Below are positions 3,854 through 27,791 of a stretch of DNA of 64,000 bases, in pieces. A program made the position numbers and the translations under genes. How positions within the stretch are numbered: position 1 is the first letter of the stretch; each line of letters opens with the position of its first letter. Below the pieces are notes generated by a model that saw only the letters and a program-made list of their open reading frames with translations, did no database searches and was not told the DNA's origin. Location: IMG/VR virus record IMGVR_UViG_3300028886_000065. One strand, 5' to 3'. Source of the stretch: a virus. Its lineage: Duplodnaviria > Heunggongvirae > Uroviricota > Caudoviricetes.

Positions 3854-6800
3854 TTATCTTATATTACCTTTCTCAAATAGCCAATAGATGTCTTCATACC
3901 CGCCCGTAATCATGAATTGACAAGTTAAACAAGCACATTCATTGGGGGAGAGAACAATACTAACAGGTGATGAAGAAGGAGAGGCTTTTAATCTACCTGT
4001 CAAAGTAATGTTACCAGCACTTGCATTGTAAACAAGTATGGTATTTCCAATGAGGCTACGAACACGCTCCTTGTATGCAGAACTATATGTGGTCACATCT
4101 GGATATATGGATGGAAGCATAATAGATACTGTTTGAAGATTACCTTCAAAGTATAAAAATCCACCAACAAGTTCTAAATCAAGTTCATAAAATCCAAGTT
4201 CATTTGCTACAAGATAATCACTCAAATTCAAGTCTGACAATCTGACTTTCTTCTTGTAAACAAAACCTCTAAACACACCAGACTCGGCATAGACTGTACC
4301 CTTGATATTTGCCTTTAAAGCCGTTAACTCTCCAGTAGAACCATTCAGATGAAGATTCGGATTGTTCTGGCTATCCATTGACGTAGAGATGAGTTGTTGG
4401 GAACTCGCCATGAAACCACCGATATTCGCATTTGTGCCAAAGATGGTGTTAGCGATAATCGTACGTACTATCCCAGCTGACTCCCAATTGTCATCGCCGT
4501 TGGCAGAAGTTGGAGCTGCTGTAACAAGGGCTGTCTGAGAACGGCTCTTCACCAAGAAGCCATACATCACACCACCTATCTCATAATTAACCTTGTCACG
4601 GATAACCATGTCATTCACCTTTCTGTAGATGTAACCTGCATATCCGTATGTCTGATGTGTAGCTATATCTACATCATACATGCCGCAGTCACGGGGAAAT
4701 ACGCCGTCTGACCCATCGGAACCAGAATTTCCGTCAAGGGATTTGGGCAACTCTGATGAGATGGCGCGTTGAACACCATCCACGGTAATCACAAATTCTG
4801 CCCTAACTACAGCGGAGGAAGTGAGAGCGGTTTGAGCTGCGCTATCCGTAGTGCTCACATACACACACATATTATCTCCAGAAGAGAAACTATTTGAAAC
4901 ATTGCCTGTCACGGAACTTGGCATATCGCTTTCTACGCCGGAGGAATTAACACAGACAAGTTTCCCAGAACCACCACCAGTATAAATGGACGCTACATCA
5001 CCTTCCCTGCGATATAATGTTGCATATAATGGCAAACTCTTTGCTTGACCGCTATCGTAGCAACCCAAGACTGATACCTGACAGGAAGGATTTTTCCATT
5101 CAACGAAATATTCAACTGCAGGAGCACCTGTGTCACCATGCTTGATAACTGGAATTTCCTTGAAAGACAGATAACTGTCGGTCAAATTGCTACTACTATT
5201 GCTTATATAAACAACGATTGCGGCGATATCCGAACCTATGGCATGGGAACCTGTGCGGGAAATACTATACATGGAACTTTTGGTGGAAGTTCCATTATAA
5301 AGTAATGACAAAGTACCTGCATGGCTACGGGTATAGACCTGAGAATAACAGGAGAAAGAACTGCGTACACCACCCTTTTCTGTGAAGAATTTCAGAGACA
5401 GATAGAGGTCAACGCTGGCATCGTCACTCAGTATAGACAGGTGGTCACAGGCATCACCATCTTGATACGATTCGATGATATAACTCACACCATCCTCTCC
5501 GTTTGATAGGATATAAACACTTTGGGTGTCGTGAACAATAGACGTGTCAATGACACCGTTTGTGATTCCATATAGAGTAAACTTGACCTCTTTAACACTG
5601 CTGGTCACAGGGACGGCCGTGCCGACATAAGTAGTATAATTAGCATCGCTTGTACCATCTACATAGTATTTACGATACACCAATGACAATTTATGAGTCG
5701 AGAAGGTAGAACCAGGAATGATATAATGATTTTCATCTGATGAATCACATATAACATCGCAAGTAACACTATTAGCACTCAGTGTATTCGTGTTCTTGTC
5801 ATAGACAATTTCACCAACAGATGGGAGCAGTGAATATACATTCGTGTCAGTACTCTTGTTGATAGTATGTACCAACGTGCGCTCGTATGACACACCAGAA
5901 TACAATGCTGTAGTCGTGATATTGAGATTGGTTACAAGTGACAATGAAGCAGGCAAAGAGGCTATTTGAACACGACCAACAACATACGATGAACCATTCT
6001 CTGTGATGGTTACAAGGGAAGTTGTCATGGTGATGTTAACACCATTGACACTCACTGTGATTACTTTTGTTGTTTGTGTGCTGTCTGCACCTGATACACC
6101 ATTGACAGAAATTGCCGTTACATTAAGAGGATCAGCATTGTGCCACATACGCATATTTGTGCTGATAGGTAAACCTACGTAGGCTTGTGTCTTGGTGTTC
6201 CAAGAAACAGAACTAAACATATTATCAAGATGGGCATTGACAAATGGCTGGGAGTCATGCTTGATGCGGATTGGGAAATTCTTCTGAATACTGCCATTAC
6301 CCTCGCAGTCGATGATAATGTCAACACTACAACTATCCATTGCACGCATGGCATCATAGTCAAAGTTTGCATCATCAGGGCTACCCGGAACACCGTCTTT
6401 GATGTTTGTGATACCTGTAATGTATATGGTGGAGTTTTCGATTATACACGTACAGCCATGAGGCTCTGCATAAATCTTATATGTGCCTTCGCCTGCATCT
6501 TCATCGTCTGCAGCTATCGTCAAAAGGGTATCGTTCTTTCTTACGCTGATAGCTGAATGGATGCGGTAGTTTCGGTATTCGCCATTCTGTCCGCTCGCCG
6601 TCCACAAACCACCTATGCAATTCCCAACATCATCGACGGTAATCACATCTACATACCCAGAAAAGTCAATGTTATAGCTCTTCAGCGACTCTTCCAACTC
6701 GGCAAGAGTTTCGGGGTCAAGCTGAACAACGGCATTGCCGAAGTACACATTGTCCTGAACATACAGACCATAACCCTGCAACTGAGCTTCACGACCATTG

Positions 6801-9800
6801 TGCAACTCTACGGTCATATTGCCAAGATACCCCTTGCGGTAAACGACATTGGCAGACTGAATCTTCCAAGTGCTAACACCGTCCAATACCATTTCATAGT
6901 AGTGACCGATGCTTGTGGCGTAGGAACTACTGCGACGGTTGGCGTTGGTGAATGAACCGTATTGGGCAAACTTCATAAACACGCAGGGATGCGGGGTATT
7001 CGTGTTGCGCAACTCATACTGGAACTTACACTCACCACGTCTGTTGACTACCATGGCCTTTACCCAGAAGTATGACGTGAAGAAACCTGCCTTCGATGAG
7101 AAACCAAAACCGTCGCCCTCGCTCTGACTTGCATAAAGCGGGCTGTCATCATCAAGGCTTGCGGTCTCAAACTCGTTGGCTATGTCGTTGTAGATTCCAC
7201 GGCATATATCACCAACTGCTATACTCGCGTAGTCATTCTCTTCAAGCTTCAAGGTGATGTAACCTGTGGTTGCATCGGTAATCTCAACCTCCTGAATAGT
7301 TCCGTAGCCATTCGTACACCACTGCTCGCCATCGGTAACTGCAATCCTATTAAAGCGAAACTCTGGAGTTGAGATGAAGTTTCGGGTGTAGATGCTTTCA
7401 AACTCTGCGTTTCCTTCTTCGTCGATGAGAGCACCACTGCCTAACAGTCGGGAATTGAAGTTTCCTACTCTTAGACCTTTCTTGAACTTTGACACGGCTT
7501 GGTGCGTAACAACGTCATTAAAGGTAATCTTGCCCTCAGCAACATCATCTTGCTTCTTTGAGAGGAAGAGTTTGCCGCCCTCACTCTGGAGAATACTCAG
7601 CAAGGCAGCAGCGTTAGCACCTGTTCCAACACCGCCACTACCACTACTAAATAGACTGCCGTTATAAATGCGGTCTATGCTGGTGGTTAGTTTCTGTAAA
7701 GTTGTTTGTTGAACATCGTCGTTCAAGGTCATCTCAACCTTCGGAGTCAAACCATCACCCATACTGATCGTGACCTGCTTAATAGTAAGGTCGGCCAAGG
7801 GTAATGGGTCATTCGCACTGGATGGAATACCTCGGAAGGTAAACTTTAAACCTGCATACAAACGCCAGAAAATACTCTTCTCTGGAGTACCTGCTTCAAC
7901 CATCTTGTCATAGTTGCGTTGCAGGTATATATCATCTATATAGGGTTGATATGTGAACTGCGTCTCGCTGTTGTCGGAAAGATAGTCGCTCGCGGCACGC
8001 AACAAACGCACCTCAGCCATCTGAACGTATGCATCGGGCATCTGGATTCCCAATAGCACAAAGTGGTCGCCTGCGGCAATTGGATCTGTCTGACTCGGAT
8101 AGTAAGTACCCAAGCTGCTGTCTTCGGCACGTTTCAGAGTCAGCATATATCCTTTCTTATTACCATAAGTAACCTTCTCCACGTCTTCCAATATCTCAAA
8201 CTCCCTACCGACACAACTGCCACTCTTCATAGCAAGAACAGGAGTATCGTCGCTCCAACAAGCATCAAAATCAAATCCCATGTCCTGAACAAAGACATGG
8301 AAACGGTCAACAATGTTGTTGGAATCATCTACGGGGAACCATGTTATTTCAGGTTCGTTGGTAACATCATGGTTCAGGCGGGAGTTGCCAAGCTGATAGA
8401 CAATGGCAAAATTATCAGTGAATCCGCTTGGGACGGTGATATTACGGAGAACTGGAGCGAAAGTGATGGTGATGTCAGACAATGCGGTGACACGTATCTC
8501 ACTTACATTCTGCGTGGCATTGACATCACCGGGAATGGCAGGAATCTCGACCTCCTTGATGCCGTCTGCACGCGCGATGCTGACATAATAGGACTCATAG
8601 TTTGCAATTGTCGTTTCTGAGCCTGTCAGAACATTCTTCTGCTTTACTTTGATGATATAGCCCACATAACAGCTACAACCGTCACGGTGACAGGAGAGTT
8701 GAAACCCATAAATAACCGCACCCATCGTTGGTGATAGTCCGTATTTACCAGGCATGACACCTTTCTGTGTAAACAAGGTGCGTTCAGGGGCAACAAACAT
8801 ATTGCCAATATTATTGAAACTGCCGTAGGTGCTGGTGTTGTAGTAGAGACAGGTAGAACCGATGCTTGCTGAAAATGGAACACCCTTCGATGAGATTCCG
8901 CTTTCCGGCAAAATGCCGTCCCCTTGGTTGGCATCGTCAACAAGGGTGTTGCCGTCATTATAACCCACAGCAAGCAGTTTGTCGATGCGCTCATCATTGC
9001 CGTAGTTTGGGAATGAACCGTTTCCAGTATTGCCGTCTTGGTCTGCGACTGATGCACCACGTAAATCACCAAAAGTAGCCTCTTCGATAGTGGGGTAGAT
9101 TTCTGGTAGGTCACTGTTGCTGCCATCCCAACGAGCACTATCTTCTCTGATTCCATCTGAGCATGTATCAGCATCGTCGTTCTTGTCAATATATGCGTCG
9201 TTGGTGTCACCTTTGACATGACGAATATATGGAAGATTGGTAAGGGCATTGATGCCATACAACGTGTCTCGCGTGGCATTGTGAGTGTTCTTGACGGATG
9301 GCGTGGAAAATGTGTCTGGAAGCTGAAGATTGGTTGGAAACAACGTCTGAGGAAGGTTATACTTCCTATTGTAATAACGATAAGGCAAATTCTTCGTTGA
9401 TCCCAATGCCCTCAGACGTGTAACAATCTTCTGCTGGCTGTTGGCAATGCGCTTAATCTGAAACAATGCCTTGCCAGAGTCTTCGCGAGTTGGATAACCC
9501 TTACCATAACCAAAAACGAAAGTTTCATTGTCGTTGTCGCTCGTTAGGTTCTTGAGGTTATAACCGATATAGATGTTTCTACCTCTGATGCAATAGTCAA
9601 GGTCAAAGGTGTTGTGAACTTCTGCCAATGCCTGTGCAATGGTGTTTTTGTCAAAGCTCAAAACTTTATCCTCGGTATGAGTAACAAGAACGGTTCTGCC
9701 ACTGGCATTGACGTATGTAGAAGTAGTGTCAACGAATATCTTCCAGACATTAGTAGTGAAAGCACGGTCAAGGTTGGCTTGTATCTTGGCGGCAAGCGCG

Positions 9801-10231
9801 CAGACAGCCGTCAAAGTATCACCATTGGCAATGGTCTCGCCACAGAACAGCTGGAACTTACTGCTACCAGTGTAGTTCGTCCCCAAAGCAGCTACATAGT
9901 CGCCTGTAGTTGGAGTGATGTCAAGCATGATAATACGGGTCAGCTCTTCCTGATAACCCTCAAACTTCACACTTTCATACGTATAGGCATCTAAACGGTC
10001 GTTGGTACGGCCTTTCTGAGTAACGCTCGGAACATAGTTCAAAGTGAAGGTCTCGCCACGGAACACACAATAGTCACCTATCGCCCAAGGAATAGGTCTT
10101 TCGGAAGTGACGGTAAAAGTGATGAACTGTTCGCCCATCATCGAGTCTTGAAACTTCCACTTGTCTACTGTGCATCGAAGTTTCGCTTCGCTGTTCTCAT
10201 CATAGTATATCGGGAGTGCTATCTTGCTCAT
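3854..10231 (-). CDS. Giant tail protein (2125 aa). Probable tail-associated Tal/gpJ-like host-specificity or central tail-hub protein with multiple beta-rich, Ig-like segments.
   Basis: Single uninterrupted 6.4-kb ORF immediately downstream of the Dit-like gene in the tape-measure operon. It is Thr/Ser/Gly/Asn-rich, typical of siphovirus distal tail and adhesin proteins. Confidence 0.6.
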   Translation of the reverse strand: MSKIALPIYYDENSEAKLRCTVDKWKFQDSMMGEQFITFTVTSERPIPWAIGDYCVFRGETFTLNYVPSVTQKGRTNDRLDAYTYESVKFEGYQEELTRIIMLDITPTTGDYVAALGTNYTGSSKFQLFCGETIANGDTLTAVCALAAKIQANLDRAFTTNVWKIFVDTTSTYVNASGRTVLVTHTEDKVLSFDKNTIAQALAEVHNTFDLDYCIRGRNIYIGYNLKNLTSDNDNETFVFGYGKGYPTREDSGKALFQIKRIANSQQKIVTRLRALGSTKNLPYRYYNRKYNLPQTLFPTNLQLPDTFSTPSVKNTHNATRDTLYGINALTNLPYIRHVKGDTNDAYIDKNDDADTCSDGIREDSARWDGSNSDLPEIYPTIEEATFGDLRGASVADQDGNTGNGSFPNYGNDERIDKLLAVGYNDGNTLVDDANQGDGILPESGISSKGVPFSASIGSTCLYYNTSTYGSFNNIGNMFVAPERTLFTQKGVMPGKYGLSPTMGAVIYGFQLSCHRDGCSCYVGYIIKVKQKNVLTGSETTIANYESYYVSIARADGIKEVEIPAIPGDVNATQNVSEIRVTALSDITITFAPVLRNITVPSGFTDNFAIVYQLGNSRLNHDVTNEPEITWFPVDDSNNIVDRFHVFVQDMGFDFDACWSDDTPVLAMKSGSCVGREFEILEDVEKVTYGNKKGYMLTLKRAEDSSLGTYYPSQTDPIAAGDHFVLLGIQMPDAYVQMAEVRLLRAASDYLSDNSETQFTYQPYIDDIYLQRNYDKMVEAGTPEKSIFWRLYAGLKFTFRGIPSSANDPLPLADLTIKQVTISMGDGLTPKVEMTLNDDVQQTTLQKLTTSIDRIYNGSLFSSGSGGVGTGANAAALLSILQSEGGKLFLSKKQDDVAEGKITFNDVVTHQAVSKFKKGLRVGNFNSRLLGSGALIDEEGNAEFESIYTRNFISTPEFRFNRIAVTDGEQWCTNGYGTIQEVEITDATTGYITLKLEENDYASIAVGDICRGIYNDIANEFETASLDDDSPLYASQSEGDGFGFSSKAGFFTSYFWVKAMVVNRRGECKFQYELRNTNTPHPCVFMKFAQYGSFTNANRRSSSYATSIGHYYEMVLDGVSTWKIQSANVVYRKGYLGNMTVELHNGREAQLQGYGLYVQDNVYFGNAVVQLDPETLAELEESLKSYNIDFSGYVDVITVDDVGNCIGGLWTASGQNGEYRNYRIHSAISVRKNDTLLTIAADDEDAGEGTYKIYAEPHGCTCIIENSTIYITGITNIKDGVPGSPDDANFDYDAMRAMDSCSVDIIIDCEGNGSIQKNFPIRIKHDSQPFVNAHLDNMFSSVSWNTKTQAYVGLPISTNMRMWHNADPLNVTAISVNGVSGADSTQTTKVITVSVNGVNITMTTSLVTITENGSSYVVGRVQIASLPASLSLVTNLNITTTALYSGVSYERTLVHTINKSTDTNVYSLLPSVGEIVYDKNTNTLSANSVTCDVICDSSDENHYIIPGSTFSTHKLSLVYRKYYVDGTSDANYTTYVGTAVPVTSSVKEVKFTLYGITNGVIDTSIVHDTQSVYILSNGEDGVSYIIESYQDGDACDHLSILSDDASVDLYLSLKFFTEKGGVRSSFSCYSQVYTRSHAGTLSLLYNGTSTKSSMYSISRTGSHAIGSDIAAIVVYISNSSSNLTDSYLSFKEIPVIKHGDTGAPAVEYFVEWKNPSCQVSVLGCYDSGQAKSLPLYATLYRREGDVASIYTGGGSGKLVCVNSSGVESDMPSSVTGNVSNSFSSGDNMCVYVSTTDSAAQTALTSSAVVRAEFVITVDGVQRAISSELPKSLDGNSGSDGSDGVFPRDCGMYDVDIATHQTYGYAGYIYRKVNDMVIRDKVNYEIGGVMYGFLVKSRSQTALVTAAPTSANGDDNWESAGIVRTIIANTIFGTNANIGGFMASSQQLISTSMDSQNNPNLHLNGSTGELTALKANIKGTVYAESGVFRGFVYKKKVRLSDLNLSDYLVANELGFYELDLELVGGFLYFEGNLQTVSIMLPSIYPDVTTYSSAYKERVRSLIGNTILVYNASAGNITLTGRLKASPSSSPVSIVLSPNECACLTCQFMITGGYEDIYWLFEKGNIR

Positions 10232-11600: not shown

Positions 11601-14600
11601 TTATCTCATTGCGAAAGTCTCTATTCCGTTAACCACATTGTCAATACGCGAACGCAGACTATGTATCTCATCATACATAGCACCGCGACCATCCCTCATC
11701 ATTTCCATCATCGCCTGAACGTTGCTGTCTATGTGATTCACGACTCGCACATGATTCACAAACGCAGAATAGTATTCCGGCCAAAGTTGTGCTACAAACT
11801 GATTCATGAGGATGCGCTGGATGGCAACATCTTGGCGCAAAGTGTTCACATAACCTGCCAGCAAGTCACTCGTCTCTTCACTCGTACCACGTATGCCGCT
11901 ACTCAAAGTATTGACACTTTCGTTCATCACGGAAAGTCCAGCGTTGTTCAATCCACGTTCAAAAGAGTTCATAAACGCCAAAGCTGACGTGATGGTTTCC
12001 TCGCCTTCACCACCTTTTCCAAAAAAGTCTGTGACGGTCTGGGTTACTGCAGCTGCACTGCTCTTTGGGTCTTTGACATTGAAGACACCATCATGCTTTT
12101 GACCATTCTCGTCGGTATATCCAAACAGTTTCTTTTCCAGATTATCAAACATCGGTTGAAGTATTGCCATCTGCATCATCTTGTTCATCACACTTTGCAA
12201 GATACTCTTCACGGTGTCCTGATATGCCTTCGCCGCACTCTCGCCATTTTCAAATGCGGTACATAAGGCATCACTTAGCTGGTCTGCCCAACTCTTGACA
12301 TCAATATCCCACAACTCTTTGGCAATGTCTTCGGCAAAGAAACGGATCTGCTCGTCCAACTCGGCTATCTTCTGCTTATATTGCAACAATGCTTCCTCGG
12401 AAGAGTTCTTCTTATCGTCTTCTTCGTTATACATATTCATATATGCATCACGGGTTGCACGGAGATTGGCAAGTTCCTGAGCATAGCCACTGCCGCCACC
12501 ATTCTGTTCATAGAACTGTTTCATCGCCTTGCTCGCGGCATCCAAACCGCTATAGGTGGATGCAAGATACTTGCGCAACTGACCCGTATCATAACCCAGA
12601 GTCCTATCACGGAACATTTTGATAGCGGAAGTATTCGCCTCCAACGCGGAAACATTACGCTCCAGTTCCTCTATGTGACGCTGGTTCTTCTTGTCATACA
12701 AATGCGCAAAAGCTGTAATGGGACTTACAATCATCTCAATAGGAGAACTTATAGCACTACTGACCAAACCGCCAATGTTTCCACTTAGAGCATTCTGAAC
12801 AAGATCGCCTACTGGCGTGAATACAGAACTTACAGCACCAATACCATCGGCGATGTCACTCCATGTATCTGAGGCACTACGATTGCCTAAAGCTTCAAAC
12901 ATTTCAGACAAACTCTTTGCAGATTTCTGGAAACCGTCAAGAACACCATTGACGGATTGCAGTATGGTTTGGAAAATATTGAGAACAGAAACAGCAGAGG
13001 TTAGTTTGGATTGCAGTTTCGTTAGATGTTCAAGTTCTTTCGCTTCTTCTGAGGTAAGACCATCTTCTGAGTTTTGCTTTGTACGCAAAGCGGAAATACG
13101 CTCATTGACTTTAGTTTGACTACCATTCAGACCACCATTCATGAACGATGTAAAGGGCGTACTCTTTCCAAAGAAACTACTCTCGTCAAACTTTTGTACG
13201 ATGTCATCCAGTTTCTTCATTTCTTCCGCATATTCCTTGGCTGTAATAACACCTACACGCAAACGTTCATTCAGATTGTTCTTGATGGCATCGGCGGCAG
13301 AATAAACTTCACGGCGCGTCATACCAAGGGAGTTATTCATCAGATTGACATAACCAGAAGAAAGTTTCAGCTTCTCTGTCATGGCGTTGACTTCTGCTAT
13401 ATCATTCGCGAGGTCTGCCATTTCCTGAGTTATCATCACACCTGTCTGCTCGTCAGTTTTCCCGACGAGAGACTGATTTGACTCTTTCTGTTTCTTCAAC
13501 TCATCATCTATCTTCCTCAACTGAGCTTCATAACTCACAACAGAACCTATCAACTTGGCAAAAGATGTCACATCATCCTTGATCACCTGTAGCTGTAACT
13601 TCTGCCACTCTTTATAAGCCTTCAGCAAACCTTCTATCTTTGTCCTATACGTTTCTATCTGCTCGATGCCATCAGCCATCGGAATCGCACCAACTAATTT
13701 TCTTCTCAGACTTTCCTCATCTATATGAACATCAAGTGAAATACCTGCTGCAAGTTCACCGCCAGCAAGACGTAACTGACGCAATAATTCATCTTTCAGC
13801 GCATCTGCAGAAGTACGCATACCAGACTCCGTAGTTCCCAAACCTGCAACCTGCGAAGACCAAGACACATTACCAGTAGCATCTCGGACACTATTGAAAA
13901 TATCCCATCTGTAAGTCAGGTCTTCTATCTGCTTTGTCAGTTCAGAGATAAATGCCGTACTCGAACGCTCAAACTCGCCCTTTTCAATGGAGTTCAAGGC
14001 GTTTGCCAACTCGCGTAAGTTCTTGATGTCATTCGCGATTTTCGTGTCTTTCTGCTTGCCATTCGGAAGTTTCTTGTCGGACTGATAACGGGCATCTATC
14101 TCCTTACGTATCAGCTTCAAGGCGTTGGCATAGTGCTCCAAATCGTCAAGGTCGCCCGGCTTCAACACCTTGTCAACACCAACCAAATTCGCGAATTGTT
14201 CCTTGACCTTTGCCTGAGCCGCATCTTTGCCTATCTTCTTTTCCCAATAGTCATACTCACGGCGAGCCTCCTGTATCAACTTGATACGCTGCTGCCACAC
14301 CTCTGACTCCTTATCCTTATAGCCACCCTTATCCTTGTCGGCATCGCCATATTGATTGGAATCTTTCTGGGATTGGCGAAGCATCTTTTCTTCTTCTGCA
14401 ATTTGTTTCAAGCGAGAGTCAACACGCGCTCTTTCTTCGGCATCACTACGGTAAAAGTCTGACTTCTGTTCATTTAACAGACGCTTGCGTTCCTCATCTA
14501 TTTCTTTAAGTCTCTTCTTTCCCTCATTACCAACATTACTTGCATCCAAACCGCTGAATGTACGCTTATACTTCTCAGCAGTTTTTCGCTGCTCCTCAGC

Positions 14601-17600
14601 AGTTTGCGCTCCATTTCGACTATGTTTTTCCCACTCGTAATAACCAAGCGGATTCTCTCTCTTGAAGTCTTCAAGAAACTCGCTGAACTTATCATCTTCT
14701 ACCTCGTAGTCGATAACAACACCAAACGTAAGTTTCAAGACTGTCTCGCGAGCCTTGTCCTGAGCCTCCTTGCTCGTGTTCTCAATAGAAGAGAAAAGAT
14801 TACGAAGGAACTTGTCAAACTCACGTTTCTGAGCGTCGGTAGCCTTGCTCAAATCAACGTTGAAAGCAGTCTCAAAAGCTTGCTGGAAATCAATAGCGGC
14901 AGATTCCATCTGGCTCGAATCGCTAATCTCCTGCAAGGCAATTAGCATCTTACTACGGGCATGAACGATGTCTTTAAGGGCGTTTCGCGTTGCAGCATCG
15001 GAATGACTGCTACTTAAAATCAAGAATTGCTGTTGCTGCTCTGAAGATAGTCCAAGGAACAATTCACGTCCCGTTTTCAAATCGTCACCTTCTGACGTTA
15101 AACCATTCCATTGCTTCCATTTCAGGATAGCTTGCTTGATCTGCTTACCATTCTTCGCTATCTCTGTCATATAAGCATCGTAGCGTTTCTGGTAATCCTG
15201 TATATCCGTCCTAACATTTTCGCCAAACACAAACCATGAACCACGACCCAAGCCATCATTGATAAGATTCTCAACAACAGGGCGGGTCTCTTCCTGTTTC
15301 GAGGCAACACCACCAATGGCGTTCTTCAATAATTCATACTTCGCCGCAAGAGTGTCAGCTGCTTCTACTTGCTTATGTAATTCATCAGTATATTCACCAG
15401 CAGTACGCAAAGCACTTGTCATTGTACTGATATTATCGCGCAAAGATTCATCAGACAACTTATTGGCATCGGCTAAGTTATTGGTTAGGTCGATTAACTC
15501 CTGATACTTACCATTGTACTTCGCGGCGGTCTTGGCTGTCTCGGCGGTGGCTTCTTTGTTCTCCTGCCAACGATTAAACATTTCAAAAACAGCCGTCATT
15601 GCTAACAATGGCCACAATGTAGCAAATAGAGATTTCAAGGCTGTACCAGCAGCTCGAATACCCTCACCAGCCAAGAACCAACTCCTACGCCAGAAACCCA
15701 AAACACGCACATTGTTGATAAGGGCTGCGTCATAACCTGCCTGACTCACAGCGGCTGCGGCAACGGCTTTATCGACTTTACCCAAGGCTACGGCACGTTG
15801 CAACTCTTCTATCGTAAGTTTCTTTTCGACAATAGCAACCTTCAAACTCGAAGCAGTATAAGTCTGGTTAGTGGTAAGTTGTCTGTATTCTGCCTCTGTC
15901 ACAACACCAGATGCGCGAGCCAGACGCAAATTAGCCTGTTCTCTCGCTACGGTTGCTTTGATTGTCGAAAGGGTTGCTACTGTATTTTGACCAAGGGCGG
16001 TGTTTGTCAGAATTGTTGCAGCGCGCATAGCACCGAAGGAAACTGAGGCAAGCAAAACGTCCTTTCCTATGCGCTCCCAATGTTTGGCCATTTCGGTAAG
16101 CGTCGTGGCAAGAGACTTCAATGCGTCGCCAACACCACCTTCTGCGATCTCGCCATACATGATATCAAAGGCATCACGCAGGTTCTTGAACTTCGCATTC
16201 AGGGCTTCGGACATCGTTTCCTGCGCATTGTAGAACATACCACCGTCATTCGTCAGCTGCTCCAAGATGTCCTTTACATCGTCGTAAGAAACTTCTTTCT
16301 TACGCACACGCTCACGCACTTCTTTGGCTGAAATTCCCATGTTCTCACTAAGCATCCTCAAGACGGGAACATTCGCCATTGCAAATTGACGCAACGTGTA
16401 ACCACTTAATGCGCCCTCACTACGTACATGACCAAGTGCTAACGATAAACGGCTGACTTCCGTACCAGTAGCAGCGGATATGTCGGCCAAACGCTTCGTC
16501 CATTCGTAAAGTTCCTTATATTCAAAGCCGTAAGCAGTCAACTGCTTTGACATCTTATCCAACTCTACGACACCGAATGGCGACTTAATAGCCAATGCCT
16601 TGATCTGGTCAAACAACGTCGTAGCCTGTTCCATGTCACCAAGAATAGCACCGATGCTTAATCGTTGCTGTTCAAGCAAACCACCAGTCTCAATGATACT
16701 GTTCACAAATTGCTGTGCGCCCCATACGCTCAAATACTGCATCGCCATGCTCTTCAAGTCGCTCAACACCTGACTCTGATTACTACCTGCATGGCTGACT
16801 TCATTCATCGTTTGCAACAAACGCTGTTCTTCTGCGGTCAAGGAAGAGGCTGCTTTTGCGGCGGCTTGGTTGGCTTTCTCTATCTGGTATGCAGCATCAG
16901 CACGGGAACGCAACTCAGCACCTGTAGCACGCGCATTGAGATAGCTGGGAGTGCGCATATTGAAAACGTTTAGACCATTGTAGTTACCACCAGATTCTAC
17001 AATCTGTTGTAACATTCGGCGGTATTGGCTAAGTAGTTCAATGCTTTGACGCAACTGGTTCGTATCAAGACCGATACCATTAGCCTTGATTTCGGTACGT
17101 TGCATGGCTGAAATCTGTTTCAGCAAAGAAGCATATTCCTTCTTTGCCTCTATAGCGGGATCTTTCGCACTATTCTTACGATGCTCACGAACTTGTTTGT
17201 TAAGGTTGCTCATCGCGTAGTCGGCCAGCTTGATATATTGACCGTATTCGCGCATCACATTCTTCAAACTCTGACCACTATCTGTCTGACCGCCATTCCT
17301 GCGTATCTGCTCCAGCAAGGTCTTCAACTCTTCAACCTTTGCCTTCTGAGCATCCAGTTCTGTTGTTGGAATGGGAGTTCCTGCGGCATTGGATAAGGCT
17401 TGACGATATTTGTCTATCTTGATGGAAACTTCTGCAATCTTGGTCGAAGACAACTCAAAACTATTCCTCAATTCATTCTGCAAACGATGTTCTTCTCTCG
17501 ACGTTTCACTGACTTCCTTACGTAGCGATTGAAGTGCATTGGAGGCTGACTTGTTCGCATCGGCCAAACCCATATTCCTCACTATCTCATTCGCAGAAGA

Positions 17601-18593
17601 ACCATAGGCAGATGAACCAGTCTTCGCAAAGTGCTGCAATTCTTGCTGTATGGAACGGATGCGTTGGATTGCACCGTCAAGTGCTGTCATATCCATTCCA
17701 CGGAAATCTACCTTTTGAGCATTTAACTTGTCAATCAGTTTTCCAAGATTCTCTGCGGTAGTAACAGCCGGACGAAGGTTCCTTGTATAGCTGTCAATAT
17801 ACTTCTGGAAATCACCTGCATTGCTTAATAGATGTTTGAATAGCGTACCGAAAGTTTGAGTCTGCCAACCGCTACTATACATCATATCCTTGTCATTTTT
17901 GATGGCCTGCAACTTCTTTTCATAAGCATCCAACTGCTGCAAGTAAAACTTCATGCCATGAACATTCATGCCTAAGTCTGTCGCTTCCTTGATGGCTATG
18001 CTGACTTTCGCACGGGCTTCCTGTATGCGGTACAGGGCATCTTCCATCTTCTCAACGTTACGCAAATGGACGCTTGCTGGAGATGTATTCATCTGACCAA
18101 AGCCATTCAACTGATTCATCGTTGTACGGACATTACGAATGACTTCACCCAAACCCGTCATAAAGTTACGCAAACCCTCGTCACTCCCTATCGTGACCTG
18201 AAACTTCTTGAAAGCTTCATTGAGGATATTCACGGATTCTGCACATTTCTCAATGCGCTTGGAATAAGACGTGAAGTTGTCGTTCTGGATAGAGGTCTTG
18301 ATGAGAGTGAGGTCTTCGGCTAACCTGCGCAAAGATTCCCTAACGGCATCCTGTGCTGCCTGTTGCAAACCAGAGGTAGCCTCCTTCAAACCTGCTGCAA
18401 CATCCTTTCCGATATTCTGAACTTGCTGATGCTGCAATGCGGACAAAAGGTTTTGAAGGTCGGTAAGACCATCAACCCTAACGCTGATGGTCTTGTCTTT
18501 GAGCTTCTGAAGCTCTTGCTCTATTTTGTTTAGCTGTCCCGTCGCTTCGTCTTGGATAGCTACATGGAACTTTAGTGGATTTAAATCAGCCAT
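11601..18593 (-). CDS. Tail tape measure protein (2330 aa), TP901/TIGR01760-type.
   Basis: Extensive coiled-coil. It carries the conserved tape-measure core GFEYKELYEWTKRLADISAATGTEVSRLSLALGHVRSEGALSGYTLRQFAMANVPVLRMLSE. It lies downstream of the G/GT chaperones and the major tail protein. Confidence 0.9.
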   Translation of the reverse strand: MADLNPLKFHVAIQDEATGQLNKIEQELQKLKDKTISVRVDGLTDLQNLLSALQHQQVQNIGKDVAAGLKEATSGLQQAAQDAVRESLRRLAEDLTLIKTSIQNDNFTSYSKRIEKCAESVNILNEAFKKFQVTIGSDEGLRNFMTGLGEVIRNVRTTMNQLNGFGQMNTSPASVHLRNVEKMEDALYRIQEARAKVSIAIKEATDLGMNVHGMKFYLQQLDAYEKKLQAIKNDKDMMYSSGWQTQTFGTLFKHLLSNAGDFQKYIDSYTRNLRPAVTTAENLGKLIDKLNAQKVDFRGMDMTALDGAIQRIRSIQQELQHFAKTGSSAYGSSANEIVRNMGLADANKSASNALQSLRKEVSETSREEHRLQNELRNSFELSSTKIAEVSIKIDKYRQALSNAAGTPIPTTELDAQKAKVEELKTLLEQIRRNGGQTDSGQSLKNVMREYGQYIKLADYAMSNLNKQVREHRKNSAKDPAIEAKKEYASLLKQISAMQRTEIKANGIGLDTNQLRQSIELLSQYRRMLQQIVESGGNYNGLNVFNMRTPSYLNARATGAELRSRADAAYQIEKANQAAAKAASSLTAEEQRLLQTMNEVSHAGSNQSQVLSDLKSMAMQYLSVWGAQQFVNSIIETGGLLEQQRLSIGAILGDMEQATTLFDQIKALAIKSPFGVVELDKMSKQLTAYGFEYKELYEWTKRLADISAATGTEVSRLSLALGHVRSEGALSGYTLRQFAMANVPVLRMLSENMGISAKEVRERVRKKEVSYDDVKDILEQLTNDGGMFYNAQETMSEALNAKFKNLRDAFDIMYGEIAEGGVGDALKSLATTLTEMAKHWERIGKDVLLASVSFGAMRAATILTNTALGQNTVATLSTIKATVAREQANLRLARASGVVTEAEYRQLTTNQTYTASSLKVAIVEKKLTIEELQRAVALGKVDKAVAAAAVSQAGYDAALINNVRVLGFWRRSWFLAGEGIRAAGTALKSLFATLWPLLAMTAVFEMFNRWQENKEATAETAKTAAKYNGKYQELIDLTNNLADANKLSDESLRDNISTMTSALRTAGEYTDELHKQVEAADTLAAKYELLKNAIGGVASKQEETRPVVENLINDGLGRGSWFVFGENVRTDIQDYQKRYDAYMTEIAKNGKQIKQAILKWKQWNGLTSEGDDLKTGRELFLGLSSEQQQQFLILSSSHSDAATRNALKDIVHARSKMLIALQEISDSSQMESAAIDFQQAFETAFNVDLSKATDAQKREFDKFLRNLFSSIENTSKEAQDKARETVLKLTFGVVIDYEVEDDKFSEFLEDFKRENPLGYYEWEKHSRNGAQTAEEQRKTAEKYKRTFSGLDASNVGNEGKKRLKEIDEERKRLLNEQKSDFYRSDAEERARVDSRLKQIAEEEKMLRQSQKDSNQYGDADKDKGGYKDKESEVWQQRIKLIQEARREYDYWEKKIGKDAAQAKVKEQFANLVGVDKVLKPGDLDDLEHYANALKLIRKEIDARYQSDKKLPNGKQKDTKIANDIKNLRELANALNSIEKGEFERSSTAFISELTKQIEDLTYRWDIFNSVRDATGNVSWSSQVAGLGTTESGMRTSADALKDELLRQLRLAGGELAAGISLDVHIDEESLRRKLVGAIPMADGIEQIETYRTKIEGLLKAYKEWQKLQLQVIKDDVTSFAKLIGSVVSYEAQLRKIDDELKKQKESNQSLVGKTDEQTGVMITQEMADLANDIAEVNAMTEKLKLSSGYVNLMNNSLGMTRREVYSAADAIKNNLNERLRVGVITAKEYAEEMKKLDDIVQKFDESSFFGKSTPFTSFMNGGLNGSQTKVNERISALRTKQNSEDGLTSEEAKELEHLTKLQSKLTSAVSVLNIFQTILQSVNGVLDGFQKSAKSLSEMFEALGNRSASDTWSDIADGIGAVSSVFTPVGDLVQNALSGNIGGLVSSAISSPIEMIVSPITAFAHLYDKKNQRHIEELERNVSALEANTSAIKMFRDRTLGYDTGQLRKYLASTYSGLDAASKAMKQFYEQNGGGSGYAQELANLRATRDAYMNMYNEEDDKKNSSEEALLQYKQKIAELDEQIRFFAEDIAKELWDIDVKSWADQLSDALCTAFENGESAAKAYQDTVKSILQSVMNKMMQMAILQPMFDNLEKKLFGYTDENGQKHDGVFNVKDPKSSAAAVTQTVTDFFGKGGEGEETITSALAFMNSFERGLNNAGLSVMNESVNTLSSGIRGTSEETSDLLAGYVNTLRQDVAIQRILMNQFVAQLWPEYYSAFVNHVRVVNHIDSNVQAMMEMMRDGRGAMYDEIHSLRSRIDNVVNGIETFAMR

Positions 18594-24863: not shown

Positions 24864-24925
24864 AGTGTGTTTTGTTTTGTGTTAATTTTGGTGGCTTTTC
24901 TCGCCACTTTGTCATGAATTTTCCG

Positions 24926-24944
24926 CAAATGTATAGTAGATTTG
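24926..24944. promoter_or_regulatory. Divergent promoter region between the scaffold gene (minus) and the terminase gene (plus). CAAAtgTA (reverse-strand TAcaTTTG) overlaps TAgaTTTG on the plus strand.
   Basis: Both match the Bacteroidota -7 motif TAnnTTTG in the appropriate orientations. Confidence 0.3.
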
Positions 24945-24965
24945 CCTTTGTGAAAATATTTTATT

Positions 24966-27791
24966 TTGGAAATGTTTTGTTTTCCAAGTAAAAAATATTT
25001 GTATGAATACTTTACGAACTACCTTTGCGTCAAAAATGTAAAGATTATGACCAAACAAAACGACTATGCAGGCATTTGTGCCATTGACGGAAAACGTATT
25101 TATACGCAGGAATATGTAAGTCAACTCCGCACAAGGGAAGGAAACAAGAAGGACTCAAACTATTTCATCGCCCAGCAAGGAGCACAGGAATTTGGATTGA
25201 GCAGCGTCGCGGACATCATTGTATTCGGTGGAAATCGCGGAGGTGGAAAGGCAAATCCTTATTCAACACCTGTTGCTACACCGTCTGGACTCAGAAAAAT
25301 GGGCGACCTTGAAGTGGGCGATTTGATTTGCACGCCATACAACGGCGTTCAGAAAGTGAGCGAAATCTTTGAGCAGGGAGTGAACACGGTATATGTCTTA
25401 CACTTCGACGATGGATCAACCGTAAACTGCATGGATAACCACAGGTTCTGGGCGAGGACAAATCCAACTGAGGACTTCCACGAAATGACGGCAAGAGAAA
25501 TCATCGATTTATATAAGATTGGTGCGCCATTTCCTCTTTCATTGAGAAAAGGAGTAAAGAGTTTCGTGGAGTTCCCGCTGTGTGGAGAGGTCGAAATGAA
25601 CGAGAAAATGACAGCTATTGACCTGCCGATACACCCGTTCTTGCTCGGATATATCAGTGGAACTGGTTTCTGGAACTTCGCACTGACAGGTGTCAAACTT
25701 ACCAAAGACCAATTCCTCGTACGGAGATTTTGTTCGTTCGGCTACAAGGTGAGAAAAAACAGACAAAACGGATTCTACTACCTCAGGGGTTTGTCGGACG
25801 ATAACAGGAAACGGATAACGTGTAGCCGTCAGGAACAACCTGCAAGAATACCTGCGGAATATAAGACCGCATCCATTGCTGCAAGGTGGGAATACCTGCG
25901 AGGGGTCATGTTCCAGAAAGGGCGTTCAATGCACAAGCACCCATATCTCGCGCTACCGAACAAAGAACTGATTGAAGACGTTGCAGAGGTCGCTCGCTCG
26001 CTCGGTATATGGGCAAAAGTTTCGCAGATTGAAGATGATCCTGAAAGAATAGGATTCTGGAAAGTTTCGTTCGTTGCACCTAATGACGGAGATTTGTTCG
26101 CAAGAGTGAACTTCAAGCAGAGAGCACATATCAACGCGGAAGTTCCAAAGAAACCAAACGCAAGGAATGTACTCACGAAAAAACTCCAGTGCATCACAAA
26201 ATCGAAACACCGACAGAATTGCCGCTGCATAACAGTGACGGGAAGAGACCATCTTTACTTGACAGACGCTTTCACCATCAACCACAACACGGTTACGATG
26301 TTGATGGAACCAATGTATGACATCAAGAACAAACATTTCAACGGAATCATCTTCCGAAAGAACAAAGACGATTTCGAGAATATCATCAACGAAAGCAAAA
26401 GATGGTTCTCTGACATCGGACGTTACAACAAGTCCAAGGACGATATGACGTGGAACTTCAAGTCGGGGGCAAAACTCGGACTGACAATCTACGACATGCC
26501 AATGCACGACTTCGACATAAAATATAGAGGACAACAGTTTGCATACATAGGGATTGACGAACTGCCTCAGATGCCGTTTGAAATGTTCAAGTTCCTTATG
26601 ACGGCAAACAGAAACACGGTGGGAGTTCATTCAAGGATTCTTGGAACGTGCAACCCAGACCCGCTTTCGTGGCTCAGAAAGTTTATTGACTGGTGGATAG
26701 GAAAGGAAGATACCATCTACGCCGACGGTCTCATGCACCCCGAACGCAAAGGTTTTGCAATTCCTGAACGCGATGGCGTCGTTCGATATTGCTACATGCC
26801 GGATGATTCCGTTGACAACATCATTTGGGGAGATACACCAGAAGAAGTTTACGAACAGTGCAAAGACATGATTGACGATGCGTGGGATCCTGAATGGGAG
26901 CAATATGGCTACACTAAGACATCATTTTTCGTCAAGTCTGTAACTTTCATCAAAGCAAGTTTGAAAGACAACAAGGCACTTCTGAAAAACGACCCAGGTT
27001 ATATCGCCTCTCTACTCAACCAGCCGCCAGAGATTCGGGCGAGAGAGTTTGACGGGAATTGGGATATTGTCAAAATGGGAGATGATATAATTCAGGCATA
27101 CCACCTTGACAAAATTTTCCAGAATGCACAGATGATTGGCGATGGAGTGAGAAGGGCAACGTGTGACGTGGCAGGTACGGGAGGTGACAACTGCGTGACG
27201 TGGTTCTGGATAGGACACCATGTAGCTGATGTATATGTATGCCGTCGAGACCCATATACAACCGTGGATTTGCTCAAAGCAAAACTACAGGAATGGGGAG
27301 TTTTGGAACAGAACTTCGCTTACGACCTAAATGGTATGGGACAAGTTCTGAAGGGGGCTTTCCCAAAAGCAATACCGTTCAACAACCAAGAAGCAGTAGA
27401 TCTCAAAGACAAGCACCTCTACGACAACAAGAAGTCGCAATGCGCATACAAGTTCGCAGAACGTACACAGCAAACAGGATGGAGTATTGAGCAAACACTT
27501 CTCAAGAAGAAATACAAAATAGGCAATGAAACAAAAACTCTTTACGACATTCTTCAACTGGAACGGAAATGCGTGAAACAGGATATGTCGAAAGAAGACA
27601 AGGGATGGTGTCTTATCCACAAGGAACAGATGAAAAACAAAGCCGTCGTAGGACATTCACCAGACTTCTTCGAGGCTCTGTTCATGCGAGAAATCTTCGA
27701 CATCAAACACACACAAGCCGTCATACCTTCGTGGTTACACAGGTCAAACCGTGTAAAATCAATCAGGAGATTAACAACACATAAATCCTAA
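24966..27791 (+). CDS. terL: Terminase large subunit interrupted by an intein. The precursor is 941 aa (an alternative start at 25047 gives 914 aa). The predicted spliced product is about 570-595 aa.
   Basis: The N-extein ends ...FGGNRGGGK and the C-extein starts TVTMLMEP..., which restores the Walker A motif GGNRGGGKT. Walker B is AYIGIDELPQ and motif III is GTCNP. A C-terminal RNaseH-like nuclease region carries ATCDVAGTGGDNCVTWFW. Confidence 0.85.
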   Translation: MEMFCFPSKKYLYEYFTNYLCVKNVKIMTKQNDYAGICAIDGKRIYTQEYVSQLRTREGNKKDSNYFIAQQGAQEFGLSSVADIIVFGGNRGGGKANPYSTPVATPSGLRKMGDLEVGDLICTPYNGVQKVSEIFEQGVNTVYVLHFDDGSTVNCMDNHRFWARTNPTEDFHEMTAREIIDLYKIGAPFPLSLRKGVKSFVEFPLCGEVEMNEKMTAIDLPIHPFLLGYISGTGFWNFALTGVKLTKDQFLVRRFCSFGYKVRKNRQNGFYYLRGLSDDNRKRITCSRQEQPARIPAEYKTASIAARWEYLRGVMFQKGRSMHKHPYLALPNKELIEDVAEVARSLGIWAKVSQIEDDPERIGFWKVSFVAPNDGDLFARVNFKQRAHINAEVPKKPNARNVLTKKLQCITKSKHRQNCRCITVTGRDHLYLTDAFTINHNTVTMLMEPMYDIKNKHFNGIIFRKNKDDFENIINESKRWFSDIGRYNKSKDDMTWNFKSGAKLGLTIYDMPMHDFDIKYRGQQFAYIGIDELPQMPFEMFKFLMTANRNTVGVHSRILGTCNPDPLSWLRKFIDWWIGKEDTIYADGLMHPERKGFAIPERDGVVRYCYMPDDSVDNIIWGDTPEEVYEQCKDMIDDAWDPEWEQYGYTKTSFFVKSVTFIKASLKDNKALLKNDPGYIASLLNQPPEIRAREFDGNWDIVKMGDDIIQAYHLDKIFQNAQMIGDGVRRATCDVAGTGGDNCVTWFWIGHHVADVYVCRRDPYTTVDLLKAKLQEWGVLEQNFAYDLNGMGQVLKGAFPKAIPFNNQEAVDLKDKHLYDNKKSQCAYKFAERTQQTGWSIEQTLLKKKYKIGNETKTLYDILQLERKCVKQDMSKEDKGWCLIHKEQMKNKAVVGHSPDFFEALFMREIFDIKHTQAVIPSWLHRSNRVKSIRRLTTHKS
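25251..26288 (+). mobile_element. Intein (346 aa) inserted in the terminase P-loop between Lys and Thr. It has Hint blocks and a LAGLIDADG-type homing endonuclease domain. The N-terminal residue is Ala, as in class-3 inteins.
   Basis: Block A/B: ...VYVLHFDDGSTVNCMDNHRFWA. LAGLIDADG-like motifs: FLLGYISGTGF and WEYLRGVMFQKG. Block F/G: CRCITVTGRDHLYLTDAFTINHN, followed by the +1 residue Thr. Trp (block B), Cys (block F) and Thr (block G) are in the WCT positions. Confidence 0.7.

Follow-up and report, generated by a model that had tools for sequence, protein, structure and literature searches.

A class-3-type intein with a degenerate LAGLIDADG domain splits the terminase P-loop in a clade of Bacteroidales phages

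The stretch of DNA analysed here (the window) comprises 64,000 nucleotides of the Caudoviricetes record IMGVR_UViG_3300028886_000065 from IMG/VR. Its gene for the terminase large subunit (TerL), the packaging ATPase, is interrupted by a 346-amino-acid insert between the Lys and the Thr of the Walker A motif, and this insert is a genuine intein. We propose, with a probability of about 0.78, that it is a vertically inherited and no longer mobile intein of the class-3 type, which must splice before the packaging ATPase binds ATP. Class-3 inteins, their preference for the GK/T site in phage ATPases including terminases, and TerL inteins in phages of Bacteroidota are already known. What is apparently new is an invariant Phe-Cys-Asn (FCN) signature triplet with an Asn-His-Asn end, confined to one large TerL clade of Bacteroidales phages, and the combination of a dead nuclease with fixation throughout that clade.

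The longest open reading frame (ORF) across the insert lies on the + strand at 24966-27791 and encodes 941 amino acids from a TTG codon. Alignment to the N-termini of homologues indicates that the ATG at 25047 (M28) is probably the true start; with this start, the precursor gene (25047..27791, +) would encode 914 amino acids and the mature TerL 568. The insert corresponds to ORF residues 96-441 and occupies exactly 25251-26288 (+), running from Ala1 to Asn346. It is preceded by ...IIVFGGNRGGGK, begins with ANPYSTPVATPSG..., ends with ...DHLYLTDAFTINHN and is followed by TVTMLMEPMYDIK..., so that the junctions read ...GGNRGGGK / ANPYSTP... and ...FTINHN / TVTMLMEP. The N-extein (68 residues, 25047..25250, +) thus ends in the Walker A sequence GGNRGGGK, which in intein-free homologues is followed directly by Thr, and the C-extein (500 residues plus stop, 26289..27791, +) starts with the Walker A Thr itself as residue +1. 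Excision restores GGNRGGGK-T, as a first-pass annotation of this DNA had read from the ORF. The Pfam Terminase_6N domain, which begins only at residue 442 in the unspliced precursor, extends on excision from profile positions 11-200 to 2-200, and its E value improves from 2e-11 to 5e-15.

Intein-free relatives confirm that the site is normally continuous. The TerL of LoVEphage-type Bacteroides and Phocaeicola phages has no intein and is 48.7% identical to the spliced sequence; it spans the junction in a single tblastn piece and reads GGCRGGSKTFTLLME, with the P-loop GGCRGGSKT. A degenerate-DNA scan of metagenomes also recovered five human-gut contigs with an intein-free TerL and an uninterrupted GGNRGGGKTYAMLLE (GGNRGGGKT), four of them long (452-553 amino acids, 46-47% identity to the spliced sequence) and one a fragment of 182 amino acids (53%). 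The first-pass annotation had allowed that homologous terminases might carry the same 346 residues as a constitutive domain; uninterrupted P-loops were found instead.

Curated Pfam models alone would not call an intein here, because the matches of the insert to Intein_splicing, Hint_2 and Hom_end all fall under the gathering cut-offs. Other comparisons bear out the earlier view that the insert carries Hint blocks. Searched against the PDB with phmmer, the insert matched gp41-1 and the class-3 DnaBi1 intein of Mycobacterium smegmatis (Msm), with blocks A, B and F aligned, and a profile of the family matched solved inteins at an E value of 1e-9, gp41-1 being the best PDB sequence match to the N-terminal lobe. 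A tblastn search of GenBank phages returned 646 records, 473 of which covered at least 80% of the insert, with E values down to 1e-23. The AlphaFold2 model, for which the alignment input was 26 family sequences, has a mean pLDDT (predicted local distance difference test) of 93.8 and a predicted template modelling score of 0.91, and it displays a HINT plus LAGLIDADG architecture. In a Foldseek search of the PDB, its best matches were the nuclease-bearing inteins TliVMA, PI-SceI and PI-PfuI (E 1e-12 to 1e-10), followed by I-DmoI for the middle domain and by the class-3 mini-inteins 6BS8 and 6RIX for the HINT lobes.

Within the intein, the N-terminal HINT lobe covers approximately residues 1-120 (25251..25610, +), with block A ANPYSTPVATPSG and block B CMDNHRFWA, and is delimited by alignment to gp41-1 and Msm DnaBi1 and by the beta-strands of the AlphaFold2 model; its border with the nuclease-like domain is approximate. 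A LAGLIDADG-type, homing-endonuclease-like domain follows at about residues 121-300 (25611..26150, +), identified by alignments and Foldseek. The C-terminal HINT lobe (residues 301-346, 26151..26288, +), recognized by alignments, contains block F CRCITVTGRDHLYL and block G AFTINHN. The C-terminus of the intein, His345-Asn346, and the Thr+1 nucleophile that follows it are invariant in all relatives.

The register of block B, on which the signature residues depend, was taken from three gapless alignments that agree with one another: MAFFT, HMMER against gp41-1, and a profile-profile alignment by hhalign against 48 canonical class-3 inteins. The last of these aligned the family with the canonical inteins over the full length at a probability of 100% and an E value of 2.7e-60, which upholds the class-3 lineage named in the first-pass annotation. 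The placement of Trp and Thr at class-3 Trp-Cys-Thr (WCT) motif positions in that annotation resulted from a wrong register. His64 is at B:10, where canonical class-3 inteins also have His, and Phe66 is at B:12, the position of the canonical Trp (with Arg65 between them; 25440..25448, +). Trp67 is at B:13, which is variable in canonical class-3 inteins. Cys326 (26226..26228, +) is at F:4, as is the canonical Cys, and aligns with Cys118 of Msm DnaBi1. In block G, Thr342 is at the variable position G:3, two positions too early, whereas G:5, Thr in canonical inteins, is Asn344; His345 at G:6 and Asn346 at G:7, the cyclizing residue, agree with the canonical residues (Asn344 to Asn346, 26280..26288, +). 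Because the register puts Phe66 at B:12 and Asn344 at G:5, the signature triplet is FCN and not WCT.

Conservation was counted over 119 protein clusters of the family plus 38 IMG/VR loci. Ala1, His64, Phe66, Cys326, Asn344, His345, Asn346 and Thr+1 are invariant in all 119 clusters, and the 38 loci agree; the Ala at the first residue, the block-F Cys and the terminal Asn pointed out in the first-pass annotation are thus constant features of the family. Position 67 varies over the same 119 clusters (W 93, L 17, F 6, N 2, Y 1), and a more distant member, P0135, has Thr there while its triplet is still FCN. We also considered Trp at B:13 as a recurrent class-3 variant, on account of outgroup inteins with apparent 'LCT' triplets; these proved to be an artefact of the hidden Markov model register, as their block B reads H-L-W. 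Four further cysteines, C27, C60, C111 and C324, are invariant or nearly so, and C324 forms a block-F C-x-C with the catalytic Cys326. Several canonical phage inteins of class 3 share the block-F C-x-C and have Cys at B:6 as well.

Class 3 was originally defined by the lack of an N-terminal nucleophile, by co-varying Trp B:12, Cys F:4 and Thr G:5, and by Ser or Thr at +1; its members sit in helicases and phage terminase large subunits, mainly in the P-loop, and those with Thr+1 splice through a block-F thioester (PMC2807308). The terminase P-loop had accordingly been noted as an intein site when the class was defined, in line with its description as a known hotspot in the first-pass annotation. 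A census of 2020 used a simpler criterion, no Cys1 and Cys at C2:4, and listed 1702 members, with the triplets WCT in 1685, FCV in 7, WCS in 3, NCT in 3, and MCT, WCC, HCT and FCS in one each; neither the FCN triplet nor any Asn at G:5 is among these 1702 members (PMC7891396, Table S1). Deviation at B:12 occurs in approximately 6% (sequence-weighted) of known class-3 inteins (PMC7891396). The class-3 clade has been reported as monophyletic and of phage origin. In our exhaustive profile search of 1.84 billion representatives, a gap separates the scores of the family (356-587 bits) from all others (227 bits at most); among the full-length matches outside the family that aligned at both ends, the best-scoring all have Ala1, Cys F:4 and Thr-His-Asn, mostly after GK. 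The window intein has Ala1 in place of Cys, Ser or Thr, Cys at F:4 and Thr at +1. By its sequence it appears to share descent with the class-3 clade, and we place it in class 3 as a variant sub-family: descent and the census criterion assign it to this class, but it departs from the original WCT definition in two features.

The nearest known systems are the canonical LAGLIDADG inteins with the WCT triplet, which interrupt phage ATPases after the P-loop Lys (prototype, MP-Be DnaB). Six annotated phage inteins found by tblastn are textbook class 3, namely those of the TerL of Bacteroides phage BS-TP3 and of Klebsiella phage N1M2, the terminase of mycobacteriophage Phrappuccino, the Cane17 helicase, Vibrio phage 1.161.O and Clostridium phage phi8074-B1; they read GK/AQPL..., ..EHLW.V in block B, ..C.CI.V...HLY.T in block F and ..VTHN / T/S/C at the end. 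The canonical inteins share with the window intein Ala1, the GK/T-or-S site, His B:10, Cys F:4, the block-F DHLY, the terminal His-Asn, Thr, Ser or Cys at +1, the LAGLIDADG domain at the same place and an end-to-end alignment, at 26-28% identity (tblastn). They differ in having Trp B:12, Thr G:5 and both catalytic Asp residues, where the window family has Phe and Asn, both without variation, and has lost the acids. One of the six, in the cultured Bacteroides salyersiae phage BS-TP3 (PQ571276.1, L001 1417-3384, gp36), is an unannotated WCT class-3 intein in the terminase large subunit, with the site GQPGMGK/AQPL...VTHN/T and intact catalytic LAGLIDADG Asp residues. TerL inteins are also known in crAss-like (Delta group) phages of Bacteroidota (PMC7886860). 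With these two precedents, the first of which is at the same P-loop site, the notable host range suggested in the first-pass annotation carries little weight.

Other solved or characterized inteins each share part of these features. The mini-inteins Msm DnaBi1 and Mch DnaB1 (PDB 6BS8, 6RIX, 6RIY) match the HINT lobes in sequence and fold, and the catalytic Cys of Msm DnaBi1 aligns (VRCVEV...HLYL versus CRCITV...HLYL), but they lack a nuclease domain, reside in bacterial DnaB and carry WCT as their triplet; work on these two inteins gave rise to the Cys-His-Thr triad model and set the precedent for redox control (PMC7664689, PMC6195587). The split intein AceL NrdHF, with a Met-Cys-Thr triplet, proves experimentally that class-3 splicing can proceed without Trp B:12; it differs in being split and in lacking the two C-terminal His residues. 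The FCV (7) and FCS (1) inteins of the census combine Phe B:12 with a non-Thr G:5, as the window family does, although none has Asn at G:5, and they suggest that Phe B:12 tends to accompany a non-Thr G:5. The class-1 intein gp41-1 (cyanophage-like, PDB 6QAZ) has Phe B:12 and a class-3-like Thr-His-Asn end; unlike the window intein, it has Cys1 and Asp F:4 (class-1 chemistry), is naturally split and is free of a nuclease. PI-SceI, PI-PfuI, TliVMA and PhoVMA are the best whole-model structural matches, HINT plus LAGLIDADG, with a template modelling score of 0.6, but they are class-1 inteins with Cys1 and active nucleases that keep both acids, and are 13-15% identical to the window intein.

The two LAGLIDADG motifs noted in the first-pass annotation are present as helices, but the endonuclease that they implied is probably inactive. 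Motif 1 (LLGYISGTG, residues 131-139, 25641..25667, +) and motif 2 (YLRGVMFQKG, residues 215-224, 25893..25922, +) align with DPYILGvLiGDG and LLRGLmDTDG of the canonical relatives. In active LAGLIDADG enzymes the catalytic acids are D218 and D326 of PI-SceI, D20 of I-CreI, and D21 and E117 of I-DmoI. The canonical relatives have Asp at both catalytic positions in six of six cases, and the nearest outgroup inteins have the Asp/Asp pair in 39 of 50. At the motif-1 position the window intein has Thr138, and the 119 clusters have mostly T (73), S (17), K (11), D (8) and N (5); at the motif-2 position, Lys223 in the window, the family has N, K, S, A, G or C and never an acid, in the 119 clusters as in the 38 loci. 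Because the metal-binding acids, whose role is established, have been lost, the domain is most probably not a double-strand nuclease.

The degenerate domain has nevertheless been kept. The length of the whole intein is nearly constant across the family (342-354 amino acids), and all family members in the set used for the ratio of nonsynonymous to synonymous substitution (dN/dS; pairwise, by Nei-Gojobori) are intact in-frame ORFs. This ratio is 0.02-0.3, typically 0.06-0.1, for the nuclease-like domain, 0.02-0.07 for the HINT lobes and 0.02-0.06 for the extein. The nuclease-like domain evolves faster than the extein, its identity to the window falling to 36% where that of the extein is 69%. To explain the constraint on a dead domain, it suffices that selection acts against misfolded forms of an essential precursor, and co-option of the domain for another function is possible. 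Among the IMG/VR loci, L046 and L047 have exteins that are 94% identical and nuclease-like domains that are 55% identical; over the pairs L046/L047 and L047/L049 the values are 92-94% for the extein, 77-80% for the HINT lobes and 51-55% for the nuclease-like domain, with synonymous sites of the intein part saturated. This mismatch may reflect recombination that homogenizes the extein, or distinct intein lineages in near-identical terL genes.

The intein is present throughout its clade. A search with the spliced extein gave 1340 matches; the best 120 of these are 71-94% identical and nearly all 900-940 amino acids long, and among them all that span the site have the insert, GGGK/AN...NHN/T. Three short proteins among the best 120 are truncated by contig ends and still show remnants of the intein. 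IMG/VR yielded 48 further loci, with intein identities of 47-88% to that of the window, and in those with the whole gene the frame is uninterrupted through the intein. A degenerate-DNA scan of IMG/VR for GNRGGGKT[VI]TMLM found no empty allele in the clade, and the looser metagenome scan returned only the distant intein-free homologues (46-47% identity) described above. The hosts are Bacteroidales, as indicated by a prophage in Prevotella sp. oral taxon 376 F0043, two metagenome-assembled genomes of Bacteroidales/Bacteroidaceae and an NCBI fragment from Prevotella corporis, and the clade is abundant in gut and rumen viromes. Divergence of the intein is correlated with that of the extein (Spearman 0.66-0.76). 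No recent horizontal transfer was visible: in no pair of loci is the intein clearly more similar than the extein, the largest excess being 2 percentage points. Because of this correlation and of the 100% occupancy in the clade, the intein appears to have entered terL long ago, to have gone to fixation and lost its nuclease, and to be transmitted vertically now.

From these features we can propose how the intein would splice. Ala1 would be incapable of the usual first acyl shift, and Cys326 in block F, the proposed initiating nucleophile, would instead attack the peptide bond between ORF residues Lys95 and Ala96. Cys326 would be activated by His64 (B:10), itself oriented by Asn344 (G:5), in a papain-like Cys-His-Asn triad that replaces the canonical Cys-His-Thr. 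The N-extein would be held as a thioester on Cys326 and then handed to the hydroxyl of Thr+1; Asn346 would cyclize with the help of His345 and release the intein, and an O-to-N shift would restore GGNRGGGK-T. From the transfer to Thr+1 onward, this proposed course is that of the established class-3 route. Phe66 may occupy the hydrophobic pocket of the canonical Trp B:12, as the Phe B:12 of gp41-1 lies in the equivalent pocket. The dead LAGLIDADG domain would be retained because loss or misfolding of the intein would kill TerL. From the crystal structures of Mch DnaB1 it was proposed that a protease-like triad is made up of Cys F:4, His B:10 and Thr G:5, and this triad was likened to the Cys-His-Asn of papain (PMC7664689). 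By analogy, the invariant Asn at G:5 could supply the same hydrogen bond to His B:10, giving a literal papain-type triad.

Several points weigh against this proposal. Of the triplet by which class 3 was first defined, two residues are replaced, Trp B:12 by Phe66 and Thr G:5 by Asn344. The residue at G:5 matters in the inteins where it has been changed: in AceL NrdHF the G:5 Thr forms a hydrogen bond with His B:10, and its change to Ala slows splicing approximately 10-fold (PMC7891396), and in gp41-1 the change of this Thr to His or Asp abolished C-cleavage (PMC12245125), Asn not being among the changes tested. A class-1 intein given W, C and T by grafting failed to become a class-3 splicer, and gp41-1 carrying WCT plus C1A showed no splicing (PMC7664689); because this graft failed, signature residues alone are no proof of mechanism. 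Finally, although the anatomy, the homology, the conservation, the fixation in the clade and the restored P-loop are all shown, we infer splicing itself and every chemical step for all members of the family, and the geometry of the Cys326-His64-Asn344 triad is likewise a prediction.

Three other explanations have to be set against a splicing, immobile intein of the class-3 type. Ala1 also occurs in the class-2 KlbA inteins, which likewise lack a nucleophile at their N-terminus, and the triplet WCT, by which the original definition tells class 3 from class 2 (PMC2807308), is only partly there in the window intein, so that a class-2-like mechanism might be envisaged. However, the known class-2 inteins are all archaeal KlbA orthologues with Cys+1, Asp F:4 and Ser G:6 (PMC4031507), whereas the window intein lies in TerL and has Thr+1, His G:6 and an invariant Cys F:4. 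Attack by a hydroxyl on an unactivated amide would moreover be chemically unfavourable, all nearest relatives are class-3 inteins, and no homology signal was found between the window intein and KlbA inteins; we therefore consider such a mechanism very improbable. It is somewhat less improbable, although still quite unlikely, that the element is an active, mobile homing intein, in which the LAGLIDADG domain cuts intein-free terL alleles and drives horizontal spread. The LAGLIDADG fold is intact and under purifying selection, the motif-1 Asp is kept by 8 of the 119 protein clusters and 7 of the 38 IMG/VR loci, and 82.5% of class-3 inteins carry LAGLIDADG domains (PMC7891396). Yet the motif-1 acid is absent in approximately 90% of members and the motif-2 acid in all 119 clusters and 38 loci; no empty target site was found in the clade, where all close TerL relatives found carry the intein; the parallel divergence of intein and extein leaves no recent transfer visible; and the GC content of the insert is the same as that of the rest of terL.

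The insert could also be a constitutive domain that does not splice, or terL a pseudogene. This would fit the presence of the insert in all close homologues and an in-frame TAG inside the insert of one relative, L064, but a 40-kDa domain between the Lys and the Thr of the P-loop would be incompatible with nucleotide binding, and disrupted ATPase function has been reported where an intein sits in a P-loop (see the discussion in PMC6195587). No splice-site residue varies, in contrast to the rest of the intein; dN/dS lies well under 1; the window ORF is intact; and the clade, abundant in gut and rumen viromes, has a prophage member in a cultured Prevotella. This explanation is hardly credible. 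A further suggestion, made by analogy, concerns the role of the intein and not its class: it might be retained as a redox or oxygen switch, splicing only in the reduced cytoplasm of an anaerobic Bacteroidales host and thereby gating the TerL ATPase and packaging. The basis would be Cys326 with the conserved C27, C60, C111 and C324, which could serve as redox partners, and the precedent would be the class-3 DnaBi1 of M. smegmatis; the redox partner of DnaBi1, Cys48, is not conserved and aligns with Val47 of the window intein. We regard this suggestion as doubtful. If it were true, the nuclease-dead LAGLIDADG domain would have been kept for the switch or for another non-nuclease role, such as DNA binding.

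Returning to the class-3-type reading, the family does not alter the general picture, in which terminase P-loops have been on record as sites of class-3 inteins since 2009; it is of interest to intein specialists and holds no surprise at the level of biological principle. With more than 150 clusters and loci and intein identities down to 47%, the family provides a natural test of the roles of Trp B:12 and Thr G:5. As Cys-His-Asn is the triad of papain, it also tests the cysteine-protease-like model of class-3 splicing, to which a natural Cys-His-Asn triad, if real, would lend direct support. Fixation of an intein throughout a clade after the death of its nuclease is relevant to the homing-cycle model. 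In annotation, rules that demand the WCT motif would overlook or misclassify such inteins, and because gene callers and Pfam yield sub-threshold matches at best, terL in this gut and rumen phage clade looks like an odd protein of approximately 900 amino acids.

Several observations on related records were made in passing. P0004 and P0008, each called as two genes on long contigs, were considered as naturally split inteins, but neither is split: the two-gene calls are explained by an in-frame TAG that replaces a Glu codon in L064 and by a 10-N scaffold gap with a frame change in L065. The TAG of L064 lies at 4931-4933 (ENA scaffold XIEF21-1 scaffold_1494) in place of the conserved Glu of ...IEDVAEVARSLG..., in the nuclease-like domain; the terL gene is otherwise intact in the same frame, the neighbouring genes are without sign of recoding, and the TAG may stem from a sequencing error or a newly arisen nonsense mutation, or may be subject to stop-codon read-through. 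In P0006, from a 3.7-kb ENA contig, a family intein runs for its N-terminal 190 residues and then gives way to an unrelated HD-domain (PF01966) protein. We considered this as an intein in a second host protein, but the sequence switches abruptly inside the nuclease-like domain, and a chimeric assembly is most likely. In RefSeq, the name 'DarB-like antirestriction' is attached to many intein-bearing phage helicases and terminases that GenBank calls DNA helicase or terminase (Cane17 gp179, Alice gp175, Phrappuccino gp2, N1M2, phi8074-B1 and Vibrio phage YC); it looks as though the name had spread through the shared intein.

In the window itself, the portal gene lies downstream of terL, at 27805, and a divergent upstream module contains a major head protein. 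The intergenic stretch at 24864-25046, which separates the head-protein module, read leftward, from the terL-portal module, read rightward, has a low GC content (0.34-0.40) and is likely to be a divergent promoter region. Two very large ORFs are found on the - strand: one of 2125 amino acids (3854-10231) has no Pfam match, and the other, of 2330 amino acids (11601-18593), matches the tape-measure family TMP_3 of Pfam (E 1e-16), which implies a very long tail.

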